From a virus (lineage: Duplodnaviria > Heunggongvirae > Uroviricota > Caudoviricetes), in IMG/VR virus record IMGVR_UViG_2526164632_000015, positions 1 through 12,112 of that record: a stretch of DNA of 12,112 nucleotides. One strand, given 5' to 3'. Made by a program: the position numbers and the translations under genes. How positions within the stretch are numbered: the first letter of the stretch is position 1; the number at the start of each line of letters is the position of its first letter. Below are positions 1,774 to 12,112 of the stretch, piece by piece. The notes beneath the pieces were generated by a model. The model worked only from the letters and a program-made list of their open reading frames with translations. It did no database searches and was not told where the DNA came from.

Positions 1774-1803
1774 ATATCAATACGGTTCTGGCGAGCCGCT
1801 TAC
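1774..1803. repeat. Right terminal inverted repeat of IS66 copy A
   Basis: 30 bp between the tnpC stop and the terminal ...CGCTTAC; shares the AGAACCGTATTGA core with the copy B right end. Exact inner boundary of the repeat is uncertain. Confidence 0.6.
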
Positions 1804-1844
1804 GATACACCGTTATATTCAAATTGTTCTGTTTTCAGGAACAT
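1804..1844 (-). pseudogene. G: 5' remnant (13 codons) of lambda G-like tail assembly chaperone gene, cut by IS66 copy A
   Basis: Minus-strand ATG at 1842-1844 lies 18 bp downstream of the gpV stop and reads MFLKTEQFEYNGV before hitting the IS terminus at 1803. This matches my recollection of the lambda gpG N-terminus (MFLKTESFEHNGV...) and the expected V-G gene order. Confidence 0.7.
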
Positions 1845-1862
1845 CGCTTATCTCTCAGCTCT

Positions 1863-2609
1863 TTAGCCACCCGGCACATTATTAACGGTAATTTCAGCCA
1901 CCGCAGCAAACTGACCATTACCGGAAATCACAGGGATGCTGACTTTTCCATCCTTAACCCCCGTCACAGTAATCGTCATATCTTTCACGCTAATGGTGGC
2001 TTTTGATGGATCGGCGGAAATCGCCCTGAATGTCTTATCCGTTGCATTTTCCGGTTCCACAGTAACGGTCAGGGTGGTTGTTTTCCCTTTTTCAACCGTA
2101 CCTGTCGGCGTTACCTTAATCGCAGTGACCGGCGTAATTTTGCTGCGTTCTTCCGCTACAGAAGGTTTACCCACGTTAGTGACTTTCACCGTGCGGGTGA
2201 TCACTTCTTTCGCCGTCACGGCCTTACCGATACTGCTGACCCAGCCACGAAACACATCCACCGTGCCATTCGGAAAACGGATTTTATAGGCCCGGACATC
2301 GCCGCTTTCAAACCAGCCTATAAGCCCTTTCTGGCCTTCCTCTCCCGGTTTCCAGGCCAGTGTAAAACTGGTATCACCTGCAGATTTCTGTCCCTGCCCG
2401 GTCGCGCTCCAGTCCGCGTCTTCATCATCCAGGTAGTTATCATCGTAGGATTCTGCCGTCATCTCGCCCGGCGTCAGATCCTTCACCTTAGCCAGTCGCT
2501 GCCAGTCATCATCTGACAACGGGTTGGCATAAGCATCATCCTTGCCGGTGTACACCCATAGTGTGGTGCCGGAACCTTTCACCGGCTCAAGAGGATTTGG
2601 TATTGCCAT
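1863..2609 (-). CDS. V: Major tail protein (lambda gpV homologue) with C-terminal Ig-like domain
   Basis: 248-aa ORF. Motifs [59 protein letters not shown] and [40 protein letters not shown] match lambda gpV as I recall it. C-terminal ~90 aa is a beta-rich Ig-like region. Confidence 0.92.
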
Positions 2610-4300: not shown

Positions 4301-4318
4301 AAAAAAGCCCTTTCGGGC
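4301..4318 (-). terminator. Short GC hairpin with GAAA loop followed by U6 on the minus (coding) strand, just after the capsid stop
   Basis: Minus-strand reading is GCCC-GAAA-GGGC then TTTTTT (reverse complement of 4301-4306). Only a 4-bp stem, so at best a weak or partial terminator. Confidence 0.3.
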
Positions 4319-4340: not shown

Positions 4341-6320
4341 TCAGGCCACCGACGAACGCACCAGCCCGCGCCAGTCAAGTGGTGCCACTCCGGCATCAAT
4401 ACGGATTTTTGTGGCAATGCCGTCAGTGGTGAAACCTTCCTGCTGATCAATGTATGGCGTGTCCACACCATCCAGCCAGGCCACTTCAATGGTGTCAGTG
4501 CCCTGTGCCGCCGCCAGATACCAGGTTTTCGGATCTGCCGCATCAAGACGCGCTTCTGCAATCACCTCAGCAAAGTTCTGGATGGGGTTAATGACACCGG
4601 CGTTTGCATCCGCCCCTTTCACACTGGCCGATTTGATGGTCTGGTTCGCCACCGTCTCCAGTGCCACCGGTACCAGCATAAAGGCCGGACGGATATTCAG
4701 GGCGCGATCGCCTTCTTTCTGCAGGCGCATCATCTGACGGGCCGCATCCAGTCCGGAAACGGAAATCCCACCGGTGGCAATATTTTTGTGATCGGCATGG
4801 AACAGCGCCTTACCGTCTGACAGTTTCGGGTTATCCGTCAGCACCTTGTAAACCAGGTCACCAATCGTTGCCTTCGCCGCACGCCCCATCTTCATCGGCA
4901 CGTCCACCAGCATATTCAGATCATCATTGATAATGGCCTGGCGGGTGATGGAGAAAATCTCCCCGTAAGTGGCCAGTGCAATGGTCTCCTTGCGATCTGA
5001 GGTGGTGATGTATTTATACTCCGCCCCCTCACGAACCTGGCGCAGAGAACCAAAACCGCCCATCCCCACGCGATACGCTGTTTTGAAGTCTGACAGGCGT
5101 CCCTTACGGGTCCACTTCTGGAAGGTTTCTTCTGATTCCTCCCAGCCCTGGATCAGCCCCTTGTTCGACACATCCAGCAGAATATTGCCAAAATCAGAGG
5201 TGCTGTGCGTCAGCGCCAGCCCGACCATCTGCATGGGGTTATAACTGGCCACCCCAATACCGCGCTCCGTCAGTGACATGCGAGCCCATTCACGCAGGGT
5301 CATCCCGTTATAGGCGTTATCCTTCTCGACATTTTCAAATCCGGCACGGGCCAGCATCGCCTGGCGGATCCCGTCCCCCACAAAATTGCCGTTTCCGGCA
5401 TAAATATGAGCCGGTGTATTTTTGTTGGTCGGCGAGGACTCCTTGCCCATTTCATTCAGCAGACGTTCACGGGCCATTTCCAGCGAACAGTCAGGATCAG
5501 CCACGCACTGTGCCTGAAGCGTCTGATAGCGACCGCCGAACATGGCAAACAGATCGTTAATGCCTGACATGCGGGCTTTCTGTTCTGCCATAACGCGGGC
5601 GCGAATGGTCGCCTCATCAGACACTGCCGGTACCGGTGATGGTTCTGTTACCGCCGGTGCAGGGATTGTCACTGTGGTATCACGCGGGGCACTGTTGTAT
5701 GGCTGCGTGATCATATTTCGGATGGATTCCGGCATCTTTTTAAATTCCTCTGTACGTTTTGACTGAATACATGCCATTGCCTTAACGGCTGGCGTCACCT
5801 GGTCTGCAAATCCGTGTGCCAGACACTCGGCACCGGACATCCAGGTCTCATCCGCCAGCATGGCGGCAATTTCATCGGTAGTTTTTCCGGTTTTCTGCGC
5901 ATATACCGGCACCATAACCGACTCAAGTTTGTCCAGACGTTCGGCATAAGTGCGCATTTTCTCCGCATCACCACCGCTGATCCCCCAGGGTTTATGGATC
6001 ATCATGAAGGCATTTTCCGGCATAATGACCGTGTCACCGGCCATCGCAATCAGGGATGCCATCGAGGCGGCAACGCCATCCACATACACGGTAATGGCCG
6101 CACCGTGATTTTTCAGGGCATTAAAAATGGCGATGCCTTCAAAGACATCGCCACCCGGTGAGTTGATGTGGAGATTAATGTGGGTGATATCACCCAGGGC
6201 ATTCATATCGCTGACAAACTGCTTCGCGGTAACTCCCCAGAAACCAATCTCGTCATAAATATAAATATCCGCCTCACCCTGACCACCCGCCTGCATCCTG
6301 AACCAGGATTTATTCTTCAT
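4341..6320 (-). CDS. Fused head maturation protease (ClpP-like) / scaffold-like linker / HK97-fold major capsid protein
   Basis: One uninterrupted minus-strand frame. N-terminal ~200 aa carries ClpP-type motifs (HINSPGGDV, VDGVAASMASLIAMAGD, MMIHKPWG). A charged, helix-prone linker follows, then a ~300-aa C-terminal capsid-like region. The longest ORF runs to 6512, but that extension overlaps the portal coding region; start chosen at M65 (ATG 6318-6320, MKNKSWFR...). Start codon is uncertain; 6296 is an alternative. Confidence 0.8.
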   Translation of the reverse strand: MKNKSWFRMQAGGQGEADIYIYDEIGFWGVTAKQFVSDMNALGDITHINLHINSPGGDVFEGIAIFNALKNHGAAITVYVDGVAASMASLIAMAGDTVIMPENAFMMIHKPWGISGGDAEKMRTYAERLDKLESVMVPVYAQKTGKTTDEIAAMLADETWMSGAECLAHGFADQVTPAVKAMACIQSKRTEEFKKMPESIRNMITQPYNSAPRDTTVTIPAPAVTEPSPVPAVSDEATIRARVMAEQKARMSGINDLFAMFGGRYQTLQAQCVADPDCSLEMARERLLNEMGKESSPTNKNTPAHIYAGNGNFVGDGIRQAMLARAGFENVEKDNAYNGMTLREWARMSLTERGIGVASYNPMQMVGLALTHSTSDFGNILLDVSNKGLIQGWEESEETFQKWTRKGRLSDFKTAYRVGMGGFGSLRQVREGAEYKYITTSDRKETIALATYGEIFSITRQAIINDDLNMLVDVPMKMGRAAKATIGDLVYKVLTDNPKLSDGKALFHADHKNIATGGISVSGLDAARQMMRLQKEGDRALNIRPAFMLVPVALETVANQTIKSASVKGADANAGVINPIQNFAEVIAEARLDAADPKTWYLAAAQGTDTIEVAWLDGVDTPYIDQQEGFTTDGIATKIRIDAGVAPLDWRGLVRSSVA

Positions 6321-7811
6321 GCTGGCTGTCGGTGGCCTGCTGACGCTGTTGTTCAGTTCCGGCACTGTTGCCTCCTTTGTCGTTGACGGGGTCAGTATCA
6401 AAGACCAGCCCCAGTCTGCTGTTTTCATCAATTTCAGCCTTGCGGCGACGTTTGACCTCATCCGGATTGCGCCCGCCGGCACGCACCCAGTCAGATTCTG
6501 TCGCTGCACCACCCCGGATCTGAATTCTCCAGGCTTCAGCTTCCTTAACCGGGTCGATCCACGGCATCACCGGACCGGAATACGTCGCGTTATATAGCGT
6601 TTTCATCTCCACATCCGCCGGAATTTTCAGCAGACCTGCCGCAACCACCATATTCAGCCATGTCCGGTACACCGGACGGGTTACCGCGCCAATAAAACAG
6701 TCCTGCAGGATCAGGTAACCATCCGTGGACTCGACCAGCTCCTGCCGCTGGGCACTGTAGGTGCCGTTATAGTTACGCGCCGCACTGGAAAAACTCAGAC
6801 GACTGCCCGCTGCCACTGCACGCAACTGGCCGTTGCGGAAAGTTTCAAGGTTGGGATTGGGACGGTCTGATTTGACCATGCCGATATCCTCGCCCTTGCG
6901 CAAATCGTCATAAATAATACCCGGGGTGATATGGACTTCCCGGTCGGTTTCTTTGATCCCCGGCTCTTCATAGTCCTGCCCGTCACCTTTACGGATATAC
7001 AGTCCCAGCGCCGCGGCAATACGCGCCGCAGTGAGTTCCGCATCCTCATACTCCTTAAGGGCACTGATCCGCATCAGCACCCCCGATAACATGGATGAGC
7101 CTCGCGTCTGATGCAGACGACGAGTGAACTTCAGGTGGATCATTTTTCCGGCAGCGATTTCTTTCGTATCACTCTGCCGGCCGCTGACCGGATAATTTTT
7201 ATAAACCAGATATTTTTCGGTCTTCCCCACTCATCAAGAAAAACCCCCTGATTCAGTCCGGCGGATTCATCAGTGCGCATGGGAACAAAATCCGGCTCCA
7301 TCGCCTCAAGCCAGAATGGCACTCCCGCCGTCCGTTCCAGACCGTTTCCCGCACCACTGACCATCTGCGCAAACACTTCACCATCCCGCAGCCAGGTCCG
7401 CAGCAGTAAACGTTCAAGCACGGGACGGGTATACTGCCCTGTCACATCCGGACTCACGGACCACTCAGCCCACAACCGGCGGATATCCGCAGCCAGCTCT
7501 GCCGCCATTTCCCCGTTTTTTCGTAATGGCTGAGGCTCCACAATAATTCCCCTGGCACCAATCACCCGCTCTTCCAGCTTGTCAAACACACCAATCACCA
7601 GGTCATGATTGATATCCAGAAAACGGGCCTGCTCCCGCAGGGAAACCGCACCGTATTTACTGAGCTGATCAGCAGAGCGATTTTCCCGCCGGGCTTTATG
7701 TGTCCGGGTCGGTTTCACCGCCTCATAGGCCATGATTAACGCCCTTGAACGCAGTCTGGCTGCTTTCCAGCCGGGGGAAAACACGCCTATCACATCATCA
7801 ATAATTGCCAT
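6310..7811 (-). pseudogene. Phage portal protein, split by a single-base frameshift (or homopolymer sequencing error)
   Basis: Two overlapping minus-strand ORFs (7811-7140, 223 aa; 7230-6310, 306 aa) sum to a typical ~530-aa portal and sit between gpW and the protease/capsid gene. The frame switch must lie between 7233 and 7200, where there is an A5 run on the coding strand (T5 at 7213-7217 on +). Adding one A would read ...LDEWGRPKKYLVYKNYPVSG... Confidence 0.75.
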
Positions 7812-8047
7812 TAAAACCTCGCCAGTTTAAATCCTGGTTTTCCCCGCCTGCGGCTCACCATCGCGGCAAGCCTGCGTTCCCACTCCTGACGTCCGGCGCG
7901 GATCTGAGAAAGGCTTTCCAGCGTCAGTTGCTGTCCGTTGAAGGTGACAGACTTCCCCTCCAGTACGGCCATTTCCGCTTCACGGTACCGCTGTATCATT
8001 TCTCTGGCTTCTTCTGTGCTCACAACCAGCCTCCTGATGTTATCCAT
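7811..8047 (-). CDS. W: Head-tail joining protein (lambda gpW-like)
   Basis: 78-aa ORF between terminase large subunit and portal, as W is in lambda. C-terminus ...RRRGKPGF resembles the lambda gpW C-terminus (...RRRGPAGF) as recalled. Stop overlaps portal start (TAATG). Confidence 0.65.
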   Translation of the reverse strand: MDNIRRLVVSTEEAREMIQRYREAEMAVLEGKSVTFNGQQLTLESLSQIRAGRQEWERRLAAMVSRRRGKPGFKLARF

Positions 8048-9640
8048 GGATTATCTTCCGCACGCTCCGTCCGCAGTTTTTTCTTCCGGCGACGGCGTTT
8101 TTCTGCCCCGGCCGTCAGTTCCGGGGATACCGTTTCACCAGAACGCTCCTGCGGGAAGACGAGCCACGTTTCCCGCTGTGCCCAGTCCGGTGCGGAGGGC
8201 CAGCGGATCTTTTCGTAACCATGCAGAACGGCAAGCGCATCCGCATAAACCAGCAGGTCAAACGCCTCGTTAGCTCCCCTGCCCGGTTTTCGCCATTTTC
8301 CGTCACTGCCGCGCTCTTCATAGGTCAGCTCATCGTAAAACCATCGCCCCAGCCAGTCGGGAAAGTGGATATAGTTCGGCCCTGGTGTGTCACGCCACAG
8401 GGCATTATTTACACGGTCCTTAAACGCATCCGTCTGAACCAGCCACAGCGCGACATCGCCACTGGCTCTGGCACGGCGGGCACTTCTGCCGGTATTATCC
8501 GGGAAGGTACGGTTAATCAGCCTGTCACGGCGAAGTCCATCCCCCTTGAACAGAAACACCCTGTTGCCCAGTCCGTCACTCCGGCAACGACACCAGAAAC
8601 GATAGGCGTTATCTGTCACCCCGGCTTCCCCTCCCGTATCCACCGCCATGGCCATCAGACGCATGCGCACATCCGGATCAGAAGCCAGCGGCCATGTTTT
8701 ATGGAACACATCCGTCAGCAACAAATCCCAGTCCTCCGGATATGCCGCCGGATCAACCGGCAGACTTTCACCGTTGGGACTGCAGCGCAGTGAATGCCGG
8801 ATGTTATAGCGATCAACAATCCAGCGTTCCCCCTGCTCTCCGTATCCGGTGATCTGCACAACAAAACGGCGATTTTTACCGCCCTGTACGTCAACCGTTG
8901 CCTCAATAAAACGCACACCATCCGGCACAGATCGCCGGGGAAACGGCTCGGCACGCTGTTCAAGCAGTTCACTTTTACGCTGTTCCGTGGCTGAACGGGG
9001 CAGATAGGGGCGTCCGATATCGGTGTTCACCACCGCTTTCAGGGTCTCTTCACTGCCGGTTCGCTCATACTCTTCTTCTGCCGCCAGCAGTTTAAAAATC
9101 AGTTGTTCCCAGGTCTGAAACGCCGCAGCCGGCCCCTCCATCCAGAATGACGCAATCCGGGAATTTCGTGGCGTTCCGGTGATACTGCCGTCCGCCACCG
9201 CCCGTTCACCTTCACGAAGCCAGATCCCTTTGTTATTCAGTTCGCGTTTCTGCTCAGGGGCAATCAGCCCGCGACAATGCGGACACATCAGACGGGCAGC
9301 CTGACCGGCAGCCACAAAATCCGGGTTATTCCGGTATCCGGTCATGTTATCCATCACCGGCTGAAAATATTCCCCGCAGTGCGGACACGGCCAGTACCAC
9401 CGGCGGCGGTCTCCCCGGTTATACAGTGACAGGATCCCCGTTGTTGGCGGTGCCTCATGTGCGCCGCCACAGCGCCATTTGGTGTCAGTGATATCCCGCC
9501 CCGGCGAACTCTCGACCAGGGTCATCCCCGAGGACATAAAGGTGGTGGTACGCTTTGATGCCAGGGTGAAGGCATCCCCTTCCCCGTCCACGTTTTCAGG
9601 GAAACGGTCATAATCCGTCAGCGCCACACGACGGTAATCC
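8020..9640 (-). pseudogene. A: Terminase large subunit (lambda gpA family), N-terminally truncated by IS66 copy B
   Basis: About 540 codons of open frame with a CPHCGE...CPHC zinc-binding segment and a C-terminal region (IHFPDW..., NEAFDLLVYADALAVL) resembling lambda gpA. Typical gpA proteins are ~640 aa; the frame runs straight into the IS terminus at 9641. The ORF track extends it to 9723 only because the frame stays open by chance inside the IS. Confidence 0.8.
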
Positions 9641-9672
9641 GTAAGCGTCGTCTCAGCACCGTCTGGCAGATC
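9641..9672. repeat. Left terminal inverted repeat of IS66 copy B
   Basis: GTAAGCGTCGTCTCAGCACCGTCTGG...; matches the right-end reverse complement at positions 1-8 and across the CAGCACCGT region. Imperfect. Confidence 0.55.
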
Positions 9673-9721
9673 CTGAAATTCCTGAGAGAATAGTGGACAC
9701 CAAATATGGTGGACGCTATCC

Positions 9722-10126
9722 ATGAAATCATTAACCGCAGTGCGTAAAAAAAGCCCTAATTATCCCGTTGAGTTCAAAATCAAAATGGTTGAACTCTCGC
9801 ATCGACCAGAGATCTCCGTAGCGCAACTCGCTCGTGAGCATGGGATCAACGATAATTTGCTGTTCAAGTGGCGCCAGTACTGGCGCGAAGGAAAACTACG
9901 TCCTCCTTCAACAACAGAAAACAACGTGCCTGAGCTGCTCCCGATAACACTTGATGCCGAAGATGTTGTCCCTACAACCTCCCCCCGGTCACAACCTGTA
10001 GCTGCTGCGACACCTGAATCACTCAATATCAGCTGTGAAGTGACGTTCCGGCACGGATCACTCCGTCTGAATGGTGCCATCAGCGAAAATATCCTGAACC
10101 TGCTGATACGGGAGCTCAAACGTTGA
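9722..10126 (+). CDS. tnpA: IS66-family TnpA (orf1), small helix-turn-helix protein
   Basis: 134-aa ORF, first gene inside the IS, followed by tnpB with overlapping stop and start. The true start codon may be internal. Confidence 0.75.
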   Translation: MKSLTAVRKKSPNYPVEFKIKMVELSHRPEISVAQLAREHGINDNLLFKWRQYWREGKLRPPSTTENNVPELLPITLDAEDVVPTTSPRSQPVAAATPESLNISCEVTFRHGSLRLNGAISENILNLLIRELKR

Positions 10127-10470
10127 TCCCATTACCATCAGGGACAAAGATCTGGCTGGTCGCTGGCATCACCGATATGAGAAACGGCTTCAACGGCCTG
10201 GCGGCAAAGGTGCAGACGACGCTGAAAGACGATCCGATGTCAGGTCACGTTTTTATCTTCCGTGGGCGTAATGGCAGTCAGGTAAAGCTCCTCTGGTCTA
10301 CCGGCGATGGACTGTGTCTGCTGACCAAACGGCTGGAGCGCGGCCGCTTCGCCTGGCCGTCAGCCCGGGATGGCAAAGTGTTCCTCACACCGGCACAGCT
10401 GGCGATGCTGCTGGAAGGTATCGACTGGCGGCAGCCTAAAAGACTGCTTACGTCCCTGACTATGTTGTAA
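10123..10470 (+). CDS. tnpB: IS66-family TnpB (orf2)
   Basis: 115-aa ORF (MIPLPSGTKIWLVAGITDMRNGFNGLAAKV...). Apparent TTG start overlaps the tnpA TGA stop (TTGA), suggesting translational coupling. Confidence 0.8.
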   Translation: MIPLPSGTKIWLVAGITDMRNGFNGLAAKVQTTLKDDPMSGHVFIFRGRNGSQVKLLWSTGDGLCLLTKRLERGRFAWPSARDGKVFLTPAQLAMLLEGIDWRQPKRLLTSLTML

Positions 10471-10518
10471 GCCTCTTTATCCTGGTCGACGCTGAATGAG
10501 CCTGGTAATATACCCGGT

Positions 10519-12058
10519 ATGAGCAGCTCACTTCCTGACGATATCAATGCACTGAAACGTCTCCTTGCCGAACAGGAGGCGCTGAACCGTGCCCTGCTGG
10601 AAAAGCTGAACGAGCGTGAACGCGAAATAGACCATCTGCAGGCACAGCTGGATAAGCTGCGCCGGATGAACTTCGGCAGCCGCTCCGAAAAAGTCTCCCG
10701 TCGTATCGCACAGATGGAAGCTGACCTGAAGGCACTTCAGAAAGAAAGTGATACCCTTACCGGTCGGGTTGACGACCCGGCCGTGCAGCGCCCGCTGCGT
10801 CAAACCCGCACCCGCAAACCGTTCCCCGAATCACTCCCCCGCGATGAAAAACGGCTGCTGCCGGCAGCATCATGCTGCCCGGAATGTGGAGGCTCACTGA
10901 GCTATCTGGGTGAGGATGCCGCCGAACAGCTGGAGTTGATGCGCAGCGCCTTCCGGGTTATCCGGACTGTACGTGAAAAAGCATGCCTGTACTCAGTGCG
11001 ATGCCATCGTGCAGGCCCCCGCGCCTTCACGGCCCATCGAGCGGGGTATCGCAGGACCGGGGCTGCTGGCCCGCGTGCTGATCTCAAAGTATGCAGAGCA
11101 CACCCCGCTGTACCGCCAGTCTGAAATGTACGGCCGCCAGGGCGTGGAGCTGAGTCGTTCACTGCTGTCGGGCTGGGTGGATGCATGCTGCCGGCTACTG
11201 TCACCGCTGGAAGAAGCGCTTCAGGACTATGTGCTGACTGACGGTAAGCTCCATGCTGATGACACGCCTGTCCCGGTGCTGTTGCCAGGCAATAAGAAAA
11301 CGAAGACCGGGCGGTTATGGACCTACGTTCGTGACGACCGTAACGCCGGGTCAACGCTGGCGCCGGCGGTGTTGTTCGCTTACAGCCCGGACAGAAAAGG
11401 CATCCATCCGCAGACCCATCTTGCGGGGTTCAGTGGTGTACTGCAGGCGGATGCATACGCCGGGTTCAACGAGCTGTACCGGGATGGCCGGATAACGGAA
11501 GCCGCCTGTTGGGCTCACGCCCGCCGTAAAATCCACGATGTGCACGTTCGCACCCCGTCAGCCCTGACGGAGGAAGCGCTGAAACGGATCGGCGAACTGT
11601 ACGCCATCGAGGCAGAGATAAGGGGAATGACGGCGGAGCAGCGCCTTGCCGAACGTCAGTTGAAAACGAAACCGCTGCTGAAATCCCTGGAAAGCTGGCT
11701 GCGTGAAAAGATGAAAACCCTGTCGCGACACTCAGAACTGGCGAAAGCGTTCGCATACGCCCTGAACCAGTGGCCGGCGCTGACGTACTATGCAGATGAT
11801 GGCTGGGCTGAGGCGGACAATAACATCGCTGAAAATGCGTTGCGGATGGTCAGTCTGGGCCGCAAAAACTACCTGTTCTTCGGTTCGGATCATGGAGGAG
11901 AGCGGGGAGCGCTGCTGTACAGCCTGATCGGGACGTGCAAACTGAACGGAGTGGAGCCAGAAAGCTACCTCCGCTATGTCCTTGACGTCATAGCCGACTG
12001 GCCGATAAACCGGGTCGGCGAACTGCTCCCCTGGCGCGTAGCACTGCCGACTGAATAA
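10519..12058 (+). pseudogene. tnpC: IS66-family transposase TnpC (orf3) with a +1 frameshift at an A5 run (10976-10980)
   Basis: ORFs 10519-11124 and 10973-12058 together align colinearly with the intact copy A TnpC. Removing one A from the run restores ...[20 protein letters not shown]..., parallel to copy A ...[20 protein letters not shown]... Confidence 0.8.
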
Positions 12059-12095
12059 CACATCCCCGTCAATACGGTTCTTGCTGCACGCTTAC
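12059..12095. repeat. Right terminal inverted repeat of IS66 copy B
   Basis: ...CAATACGGTTCTTGCTGCACGCTTAC; shares the AGAACCGTATTGA core with the copy A right end. Confidence 0.6.
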
Positions 12096-12112
12096 CATCA
12101 AACATCGTGGTT

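Follow-up and report, generated by a model that had tools for sequence, protein, structure and literature searches.

Truncation of the tail assembly chaperone gene G beside an IS679 end in a defective lambdoid prophage of Escherichia coli, and its possible origin in an IS-adjacent deletion

In phage lambda, the tail assembly chaperone gene G (Phage_TAC_2) lies directly after the major tail gene V. G and G-T use one start codon, G-T being made by a -1 frameshift near the 3' end of G, and both chaperones are reportedly required for tail assembly. The gene described here occupies the same place, as does its intact counterpart in the relatives, but only its first 13 codons remain, and the DNA analysed contains neither the chaperone domain nor the slip site nor T. 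It is cut at the end of a copy of IS679, an IS66-family element of ~2.7 kb with GTAAGCG termini and an 8-bp target duplication. Simple insertions of the IS66 family are said to leave 8-bp duplications normally, and the transposition chemistry of this family is still poorly defined. The formation of adjacent deletions is a general property of many ISs (PMC8860574), and an IS located in a defective lambdoid prophage progressively removes the neighbouring dispensable genes (PMC8860574, PMC9943667). The small IS-linked deletions and the prophage decay described in pathogenic E. coli (IS629 in O157; 'IS creep') are comparable to the present case in that a resident IS erodes its dispensable neighbours. 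The elements at work there are of the IS3 family and often have the help of IEE, whereas the element considered here belongs to the IS66 family and its mode of action is one that we infer. In the literature on adjacent deletions by IS66-family elements, no paper documenting such events was found.

The DNA analysed (hereafter the window, 12,112 bp) is the whole of contig AIHC01000031.1 from the draft assembly GCA_000250255.2. The contig begins inside IS679, and a single IS679 junction lies in the window, that of its right end with G; the left end of the element falls beyond the contig start. The coordinates of the features are collected in Table 1.

Table 1. Features of the window around the truncated gene G and at the right end of the contig
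Feature	Position	Strand	Description
IS679, 3' 1.8 kb	1-1803	plus	from ~IS position 903 to the right terminus; 99.7% identical to L003 8228-10029
tnpB, 3' fragment	15-182	plus	in IS679
Transposase tnpC, 523 aa	202-1773	plus	in IS679; ends 30 nt inside the right terminus
IS679 right inverted repeat	ends 1803	plus	...GAGCCGCTTAC
Residual 14-aa ORF	1800-1844	minus	MFLKTEQFEYNGVS, then stop; G bases 1804-1844 and IS679 bases 1800-1803
Eight bases adjoining the IS679 terminus	1804-1811	plus	GATACACC
V-G intergenic spacer, 18 nt	1845-1862	minus	unchanged; 100% identity to relatives
Major tail tube protein V, 248 aa, intact	1863-2609	minus	Phage_TTP_12 (E = 1.6e-68) and Big_2; identical to WP_001007215.1
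Terminase large-subunit gene	8020-9640	minus	5' end cut by ISEc22
Complete ISEc22, 2455 bp	9641-12095	plus	IS66 family; left target GGTAATCC at 9633-9640
17 nt CATCAAACATCGTGGTT	12096-12112	plus	flank and 8-bp duplication (CATCAAAC...) of another ISEc22 copy

The start codon of the G remnant (ATG, 1844-1842, minus strand) stands 18 nt past the stop codon of V (TAA, 1865-1863, minus strand), as the preliminary description, made from the sequence alone, had already read. That description had the peptide MFLKTEQFEYNGV ending at the IS terminus, which is correct for the 13 codons (1844-1806, minus strand) and for the exact IS end, whereas the break itself lies two bases into codon 14. The G sequence stops at 1804, so that codon 14 keeps two bases only (TC, 1805-1804). 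Base 1803 (a minus-strand G), with which the IS terminus begins, completes it as TCG (Ser), the corresponding codon of the intact gene being TCC, likewise Ser, and the stop codon of the residual ORF (TAA, 1802-1800) is supplied by IS679.

From 1804 to 2700, the window is identical (897/897 positions) to three complete E. coli genomes, those of FDAARGOS_1059, 602687 and the O111:H2 strain 12A, and the three alignments start at exactly window position 1804. In each of these genomes, the RefSeq label at this place is 'phage tail assembly chaperone G', 143 aa. The remnant is 100% identical to codons 1-13 of the intact G in L003 (strain 12A; WP_000479075.1), which opens with MFLKTEQFEYNGVSVTLSELSALQRIEHL.... 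The likeness to the N-terminus of lambda gpG, proposed in the preliminary description, was also reproduced: 11 of the 13 residues are identical to lambda G (J02459, MFLKTESFEHNGV), with the common pattern MFLKTE.FE.NGV. In full length, the intact ortholog shares 68% identity with lambda G (E = 7e-67) and matches PF06894 in Pfam (E = 3.5e-51). On the strength of these alignments, a chance match between the remnant and lambda G is ruled out.

A complete PF06894 chaperone domain is lacking in the window, as are the slippery heptamer and the overlapping T frame that G-T requires. The slip site GGGAAAG (nt 408 of G) and T are present in the relatives, where the heptamer is in the same frame as in lambda (G GGA AAG) and the -1 shift gives a 287-aa G-T fusion; both are absent from the window. 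As read from its sequence, the window G is thus a gene remnant, without function as a member of the chaperone family. We advise that G be annotated here as a 5' remnant and that the presence of T, H, M and L should not be assumed. The two products share the ATG, and the window lacks both the slip site and T, so that neither G nor G-T can be made. Both should therefore be regarded as null at this locus, a sound prediction whether the gene was cut by an insertion or by a deletion. With neither protein, no tail tube can be built on the tape measure protein; this loss would abolish tail assembly. The data also support an event in G separate from the insertion of ISEc22 in the terminase gene. The biological weight of this further step is small. 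It concerns IS-driven decay in an already dead lambdoid prophage, whose terminase had been split by ISEc22 and which had lost tail genes. The truncation of G is an ordinary, routine case of prophage decay in a draft genome.

The element at the left end of the window shares 99.7-99.9% DNA identity with annotated IS679 copies, the region compared in L003 (8228-10029) being annotated as 'IS66-like element IS679 family transposase'. Pfam detects DDE_Tnp_IS66 (PF03050, E = 9.7e-104), together with zf-IS66, LZ_Tnp_IS66 and IS66_C. On the minus strand, the terminus reads GTAAGCG (1803-1797; IRL and IRR aligned), and the sequence running inward from base 1803 is GTAAGCGGCTCGCCAGAACCG. The ...CGCTTAC terminus and the IS66 DDE domains are those of the reference IS679, of which the window contains no more than the 3' 1.8 kb. 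Full copies in the relatives measure 2704 bp and carry tnpA-tnpB-tnpC, while the window copy has only the 3' fragment of tnpB, with tnpC. The initial assignment of this element to the IS66 family is thus confirmed, and the element can be named IS679. In contrast, the two ISs of the window, first taken for 'copy A' and 'copy B' of one element, are different ISs, ISEc22 sharing 68-75% identity with IS679 over parts of its length only. Private differences of the window IS679 were found at 125 and 447 (substitutions) and at 25 (indel); they may be sequencing errors. This transposase variant was found on contig AIHC01000031.1 only. SNPs specific to single IS679 copies pointed to no donor copy; the segment 30-1803 of the window has no exact match in complete genomes.

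The relatives of this prophage, which show no mismatch to the window over 7.8 kb, carry several allelic states of the K-L region. In strain 602687, neither IS is present. FDAARGOS_1059 and two NCTC assemblies (UGEA01 and UGEB01) carry IS679 in the tail gene K as a simple insertion, with the duplication AATAATCC. In 12A/DEC12A, UARW01 and UGFE01, the left junction is the same as in the K-insertion relatives, while the right junction is found 242 bp further, in L, without duplication. A comparison of L003 7326-10037 with L005 7844-10560 gives the loss as 242 bp, made up of 234 bp and the right-hand duplication. As judged from these aligned junctions, the 242-bp loss in the 12A lineage is a proven precedent for an adjacent deletion by the right end of IS679. 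The deletion in 12A/DEC12A also joins IS679 to L, thereby creating a 236-aa L-IS fusion ORF. In all relatives with IS679 in K/L, the element has the orientation found in the window, its right end facing L-M-H-T-G-V, and the copy in K lies 4.6 kb from the position of the G junction. In addition, position 8592 of the window (in the terminase gene) is A in the window and in 5/5 assemblies with IS679 at K/L, and G in 6/6 assemblies with intact K. This shared A places the source strain in the clade with IS679 at K, a placement that is based on one SNP in 11 assemblies.

We searched for the junction and for the missing genes. The exact junction of IS679 with G was covered by no match in 5,426 complete E. 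coli genomes, and the corresponding 28-mer was absent from the GTDB representatives, IMG/VR and the JGI metagenomes; this junction is private to the present assembly. The exact tape-measure protein H of the prophage was found on 23 contigs, each of at least 10 kb; GCA_000250255.2 does not figure among the matches listed. Likewise, when near-identical variants of H were looked up, no contig of this assembly was seen among the matches listed. Because 454-type indels could have broken H, the absence of the exact protein is weak evidence. The L-IS fusion protein of the 12A type was not found in GCA_000250255.2 either. For the far side of a putative insertion in G, a hypothetical simple-insertion sequence was built, from which G' ORFs of 97, 95, 84, 82, 67, 63 and 62 aa were predicted. 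Three of these seven were absent from the sequence collection. The 95- and 67-aa forms were traced to contigs from other samples, none from GCA_000250255.2, and the accessions listed for the 82- and 62-aa forms fall outside the DEC era.

Two candidates for the missing parts were rejected. A 130-aa partial G beginning at codon 14 (P0014) resembles the sequence expected beyond the IS. It is carried by nine contigs (L041-L049), unrelated to one another and taken from isolates as well as metagenomes, that start 0-2 nt from this codon. Codons 13-14, GT(A/G) TC(C/T), differ between co-resident lambdoid prophages, which makes assembly graphs branch at this place, and these contig starts were attributed to de Bruijn contig breaks in unrelated samples. 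The protein P0116 lies on a 5.5-kb contig of another assembly, in which G is intact.

Taken together, we consider that the junction is probably the scar of a 4,586-bp deletion adjacent to IS679, which removed K'-L-M-H-T-G'. In the ancestor, a simple insertion would have placed IS679 in K so that its right end pointed toward L-M-H-T-G; in an intramolecular transposition, this end would then have attacked G. An equivalent route would be that the element first made a local hop and that the two direct copies of IS679 then recombined. By either route, the 4,586 bp lost would comprise the 5' part of K, then L, M, H and T, and codons 14-143 of G. The 3' part of K, and not the rest of G, would be expected beyond the IS, no 8-bp duplication would exist, and GATACACC would be a mere deletion endpoint. 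A larger deletion of the 12A type would produce precisely this junction of the IS right end with codon 14 of G. In 12A/DEC12A (O111:H2), the prophage, the IS, its orientation and the IS end involved are all as in the window; the differences are that the deletion extends there 242 bp into L and both junctions are seen, as against a putative 4,586 bp into G and one junction here. A deletion is also favoured by the homology to G, which begins at exactly 1804 and adjoins the exact terminus of IS679. Given the clade placement, it is moreover the more economical explanation, since an IS679 is available 4.6 kb away in the right orientation, since an adjacent deletion has already occurred at the same IS end, and since no trace of H, of the L-IS fusion or of G' was found in the non-exhaustive searches of the assembly.

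The main competitor is a simple two-ended insertion of IS679 in G, with codon 14 onward of G, T, H and the other tail genes lying beyond the IS. This origin is possible, but we regard it as rather unlikely. A simple insertion is the default result of IS transposition, and both IS679 in K and ISEc22 in the terminase gene are insertions of this kind, with 8-bp duplications; that simple insertions of the IS66 family normally give such duplications was also counted against the deletion. In addition, strains with ISEc22 in the terminase gene and intact K exist (L024), so that IS679 in K is not required in the source strain and a lineage without it is possible, and the search of the assembly for T-H-M-L was non-exhaustive. 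Against this, the window has the A allele at 8592 of a clade in which every characterised member carries IS679 at K/L, and a second IS679 at 4.6 kb from the first and in the same orientation would be a coincidence that the deletion does not need. The lack of a contig below 10 kb with the exact H, and of any G' ORF from this assembly among those traced (95 and 67 aa), also argue against an insertion. The two explanations differ in the sequence expected on the far side of the element. A simple insertion predicts GATACACC at both IS ends and a far junction in which ...GCGTGACGGATACACC is followed by GTAAGCGCATCATTT..., i.e. the rest of G, GATACACC and the left end of IS679. Codon 14 onward of G would be preceded by GGTGTATC and the IS679 left end, and reads would pass from ...GACGGATACACC into GTAAGCGCATC. 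The preliminary description had called the event a second independent inactivating insertion. The inactivation of G and its independence from the ISEc22 event are upheld, but an insertion is less favoured than a deletion, and the wording 'inserted into G' is probably wrong in detail.

Two further origins were considered, both with a low probability. A complex rearrangement, in which the IS679 beside G' would be neither a simple insertion nor the copy resident in K, seems very improbable to us. An insertion followed by recombination with a distant IS679 would be an example, with unrelated chromosome beyond the element. IS679 queries match ~15-16 places per relative chromosome (IS679 and related IS66-family copies), and the other end of the contig suggests either a mis-assembly or a real IS-mediated rearrangement. 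Large events between direct copies would, however, delete essential regions, and nothing in the data requires such a rearrangement. An intramolecular inversion was rejected from the IS end that faces G': under a Shapiro-type model, a deletion would place the right end of IS679 beside G', as found here, while an inversion would place the left end there. Least probable of all, and hardly credible in our opinion, is an artefact of 454-era assembly with an intact G in the strain. The contig is indeed unreliable across repeats, as it leaves ISEc22 into the flank of a copy located 0.93 Mb away, it contains several single-base indels, and, in the sister draft DEC12A, the V/G boundary is a hybrid that derives from a paralogous prophage. 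But the unique G sequence is joined to the exact last base of the IS, with no overlap on which a mis-join could occur, and spanning reads would be needed; assemblers mis-thread repeats but do not invent junctions between a repeat and a unique sequence. Moreover, an intact G would let the contig continue into T-H-M-L, as in contig AIHA01000063 of DEC12A.

If the adjacent deletion is the right explanation, the prophage of this lineage has at least three IS-related lesions, i.e. ISEc22 in the terminase gene, IS679 in K and the deletion. We give about even chances to a broader proposal, in which IS679 'creeps': its left junction in K would stay fixed while one-ended adjacent deletions recur. If true, the formation of adjacent deletions by an IS66-family element would be seen here in nature, in an allelic series of one O111:H2 prophage with losses of 0 bp (with the duplication), 242 bp (ending in L) and 4,586 bp (ending in G). 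Such a possible natural series of IS679 adjacent deletions is a mildly new angle on this decay.

An IS end lying against a gene in a draft contig is no proof of an insertion into that gene, and contigs that end in IS copies or thread through them can be chimeric, as the right end of the present one illustrates. In the relatives, ISEc22 entered the terminase gene by simple insertion and is flanked by the 8-bp duplication GGTAATCC. In the window, the 17 nt that follow this element do not continue the terminase gene and belong to the yoaI/DUF441 locus, 0.93 Mb off in strain 12A; this points to a chimeric contig, joined across the IS, or else to a rearrangement in the strain. At the other end of ISEc22, the terminase ORF (8020-9723, 567 aa, minus strand) opens with an ATG inside the left end of the IS, giving an IS-terminase fusion ORF, and products of the same length were called in DEC12A and ADUO01000169. 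The draft contig AIHA01000063.1 of DEC12A contains a local mis-assembly: around L025 ~7080-7190 (window 1804-1900), the 3' end of V and the 5' end of G form a hybrid with a paralogous prophage, which gives a 250-aa V and conflicts with the complete genome of the same strain.

Compared with the three complete relatives, the window has single-base indels at 25, 4301, 7213 and 10976, the last three in homopolymers, and the indel load of the assembly is ~5 per 12 kb, a 454-type pattern. These indels split tnpB of IS679, the portal gene (6310-7811) and the ISEc22 transposase gene (10519-12058), that at 4301 being intergenic. They probably reflect errors of 454 sequencing and not true pseudogenes, and the apparent frameshifts of the portal and ISEc22 transposase genes are therefore suspect. 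Finally, the segment 4341-6320 (minus strand) corresponds to a single ClpP-like prohead protease/major capsid fusion, 659 aa in the relatives. The head of lambda has separate C, Nu3 and E, so that the resemblance of the window prophage to lambda covers the tail and does not extend to the head module.
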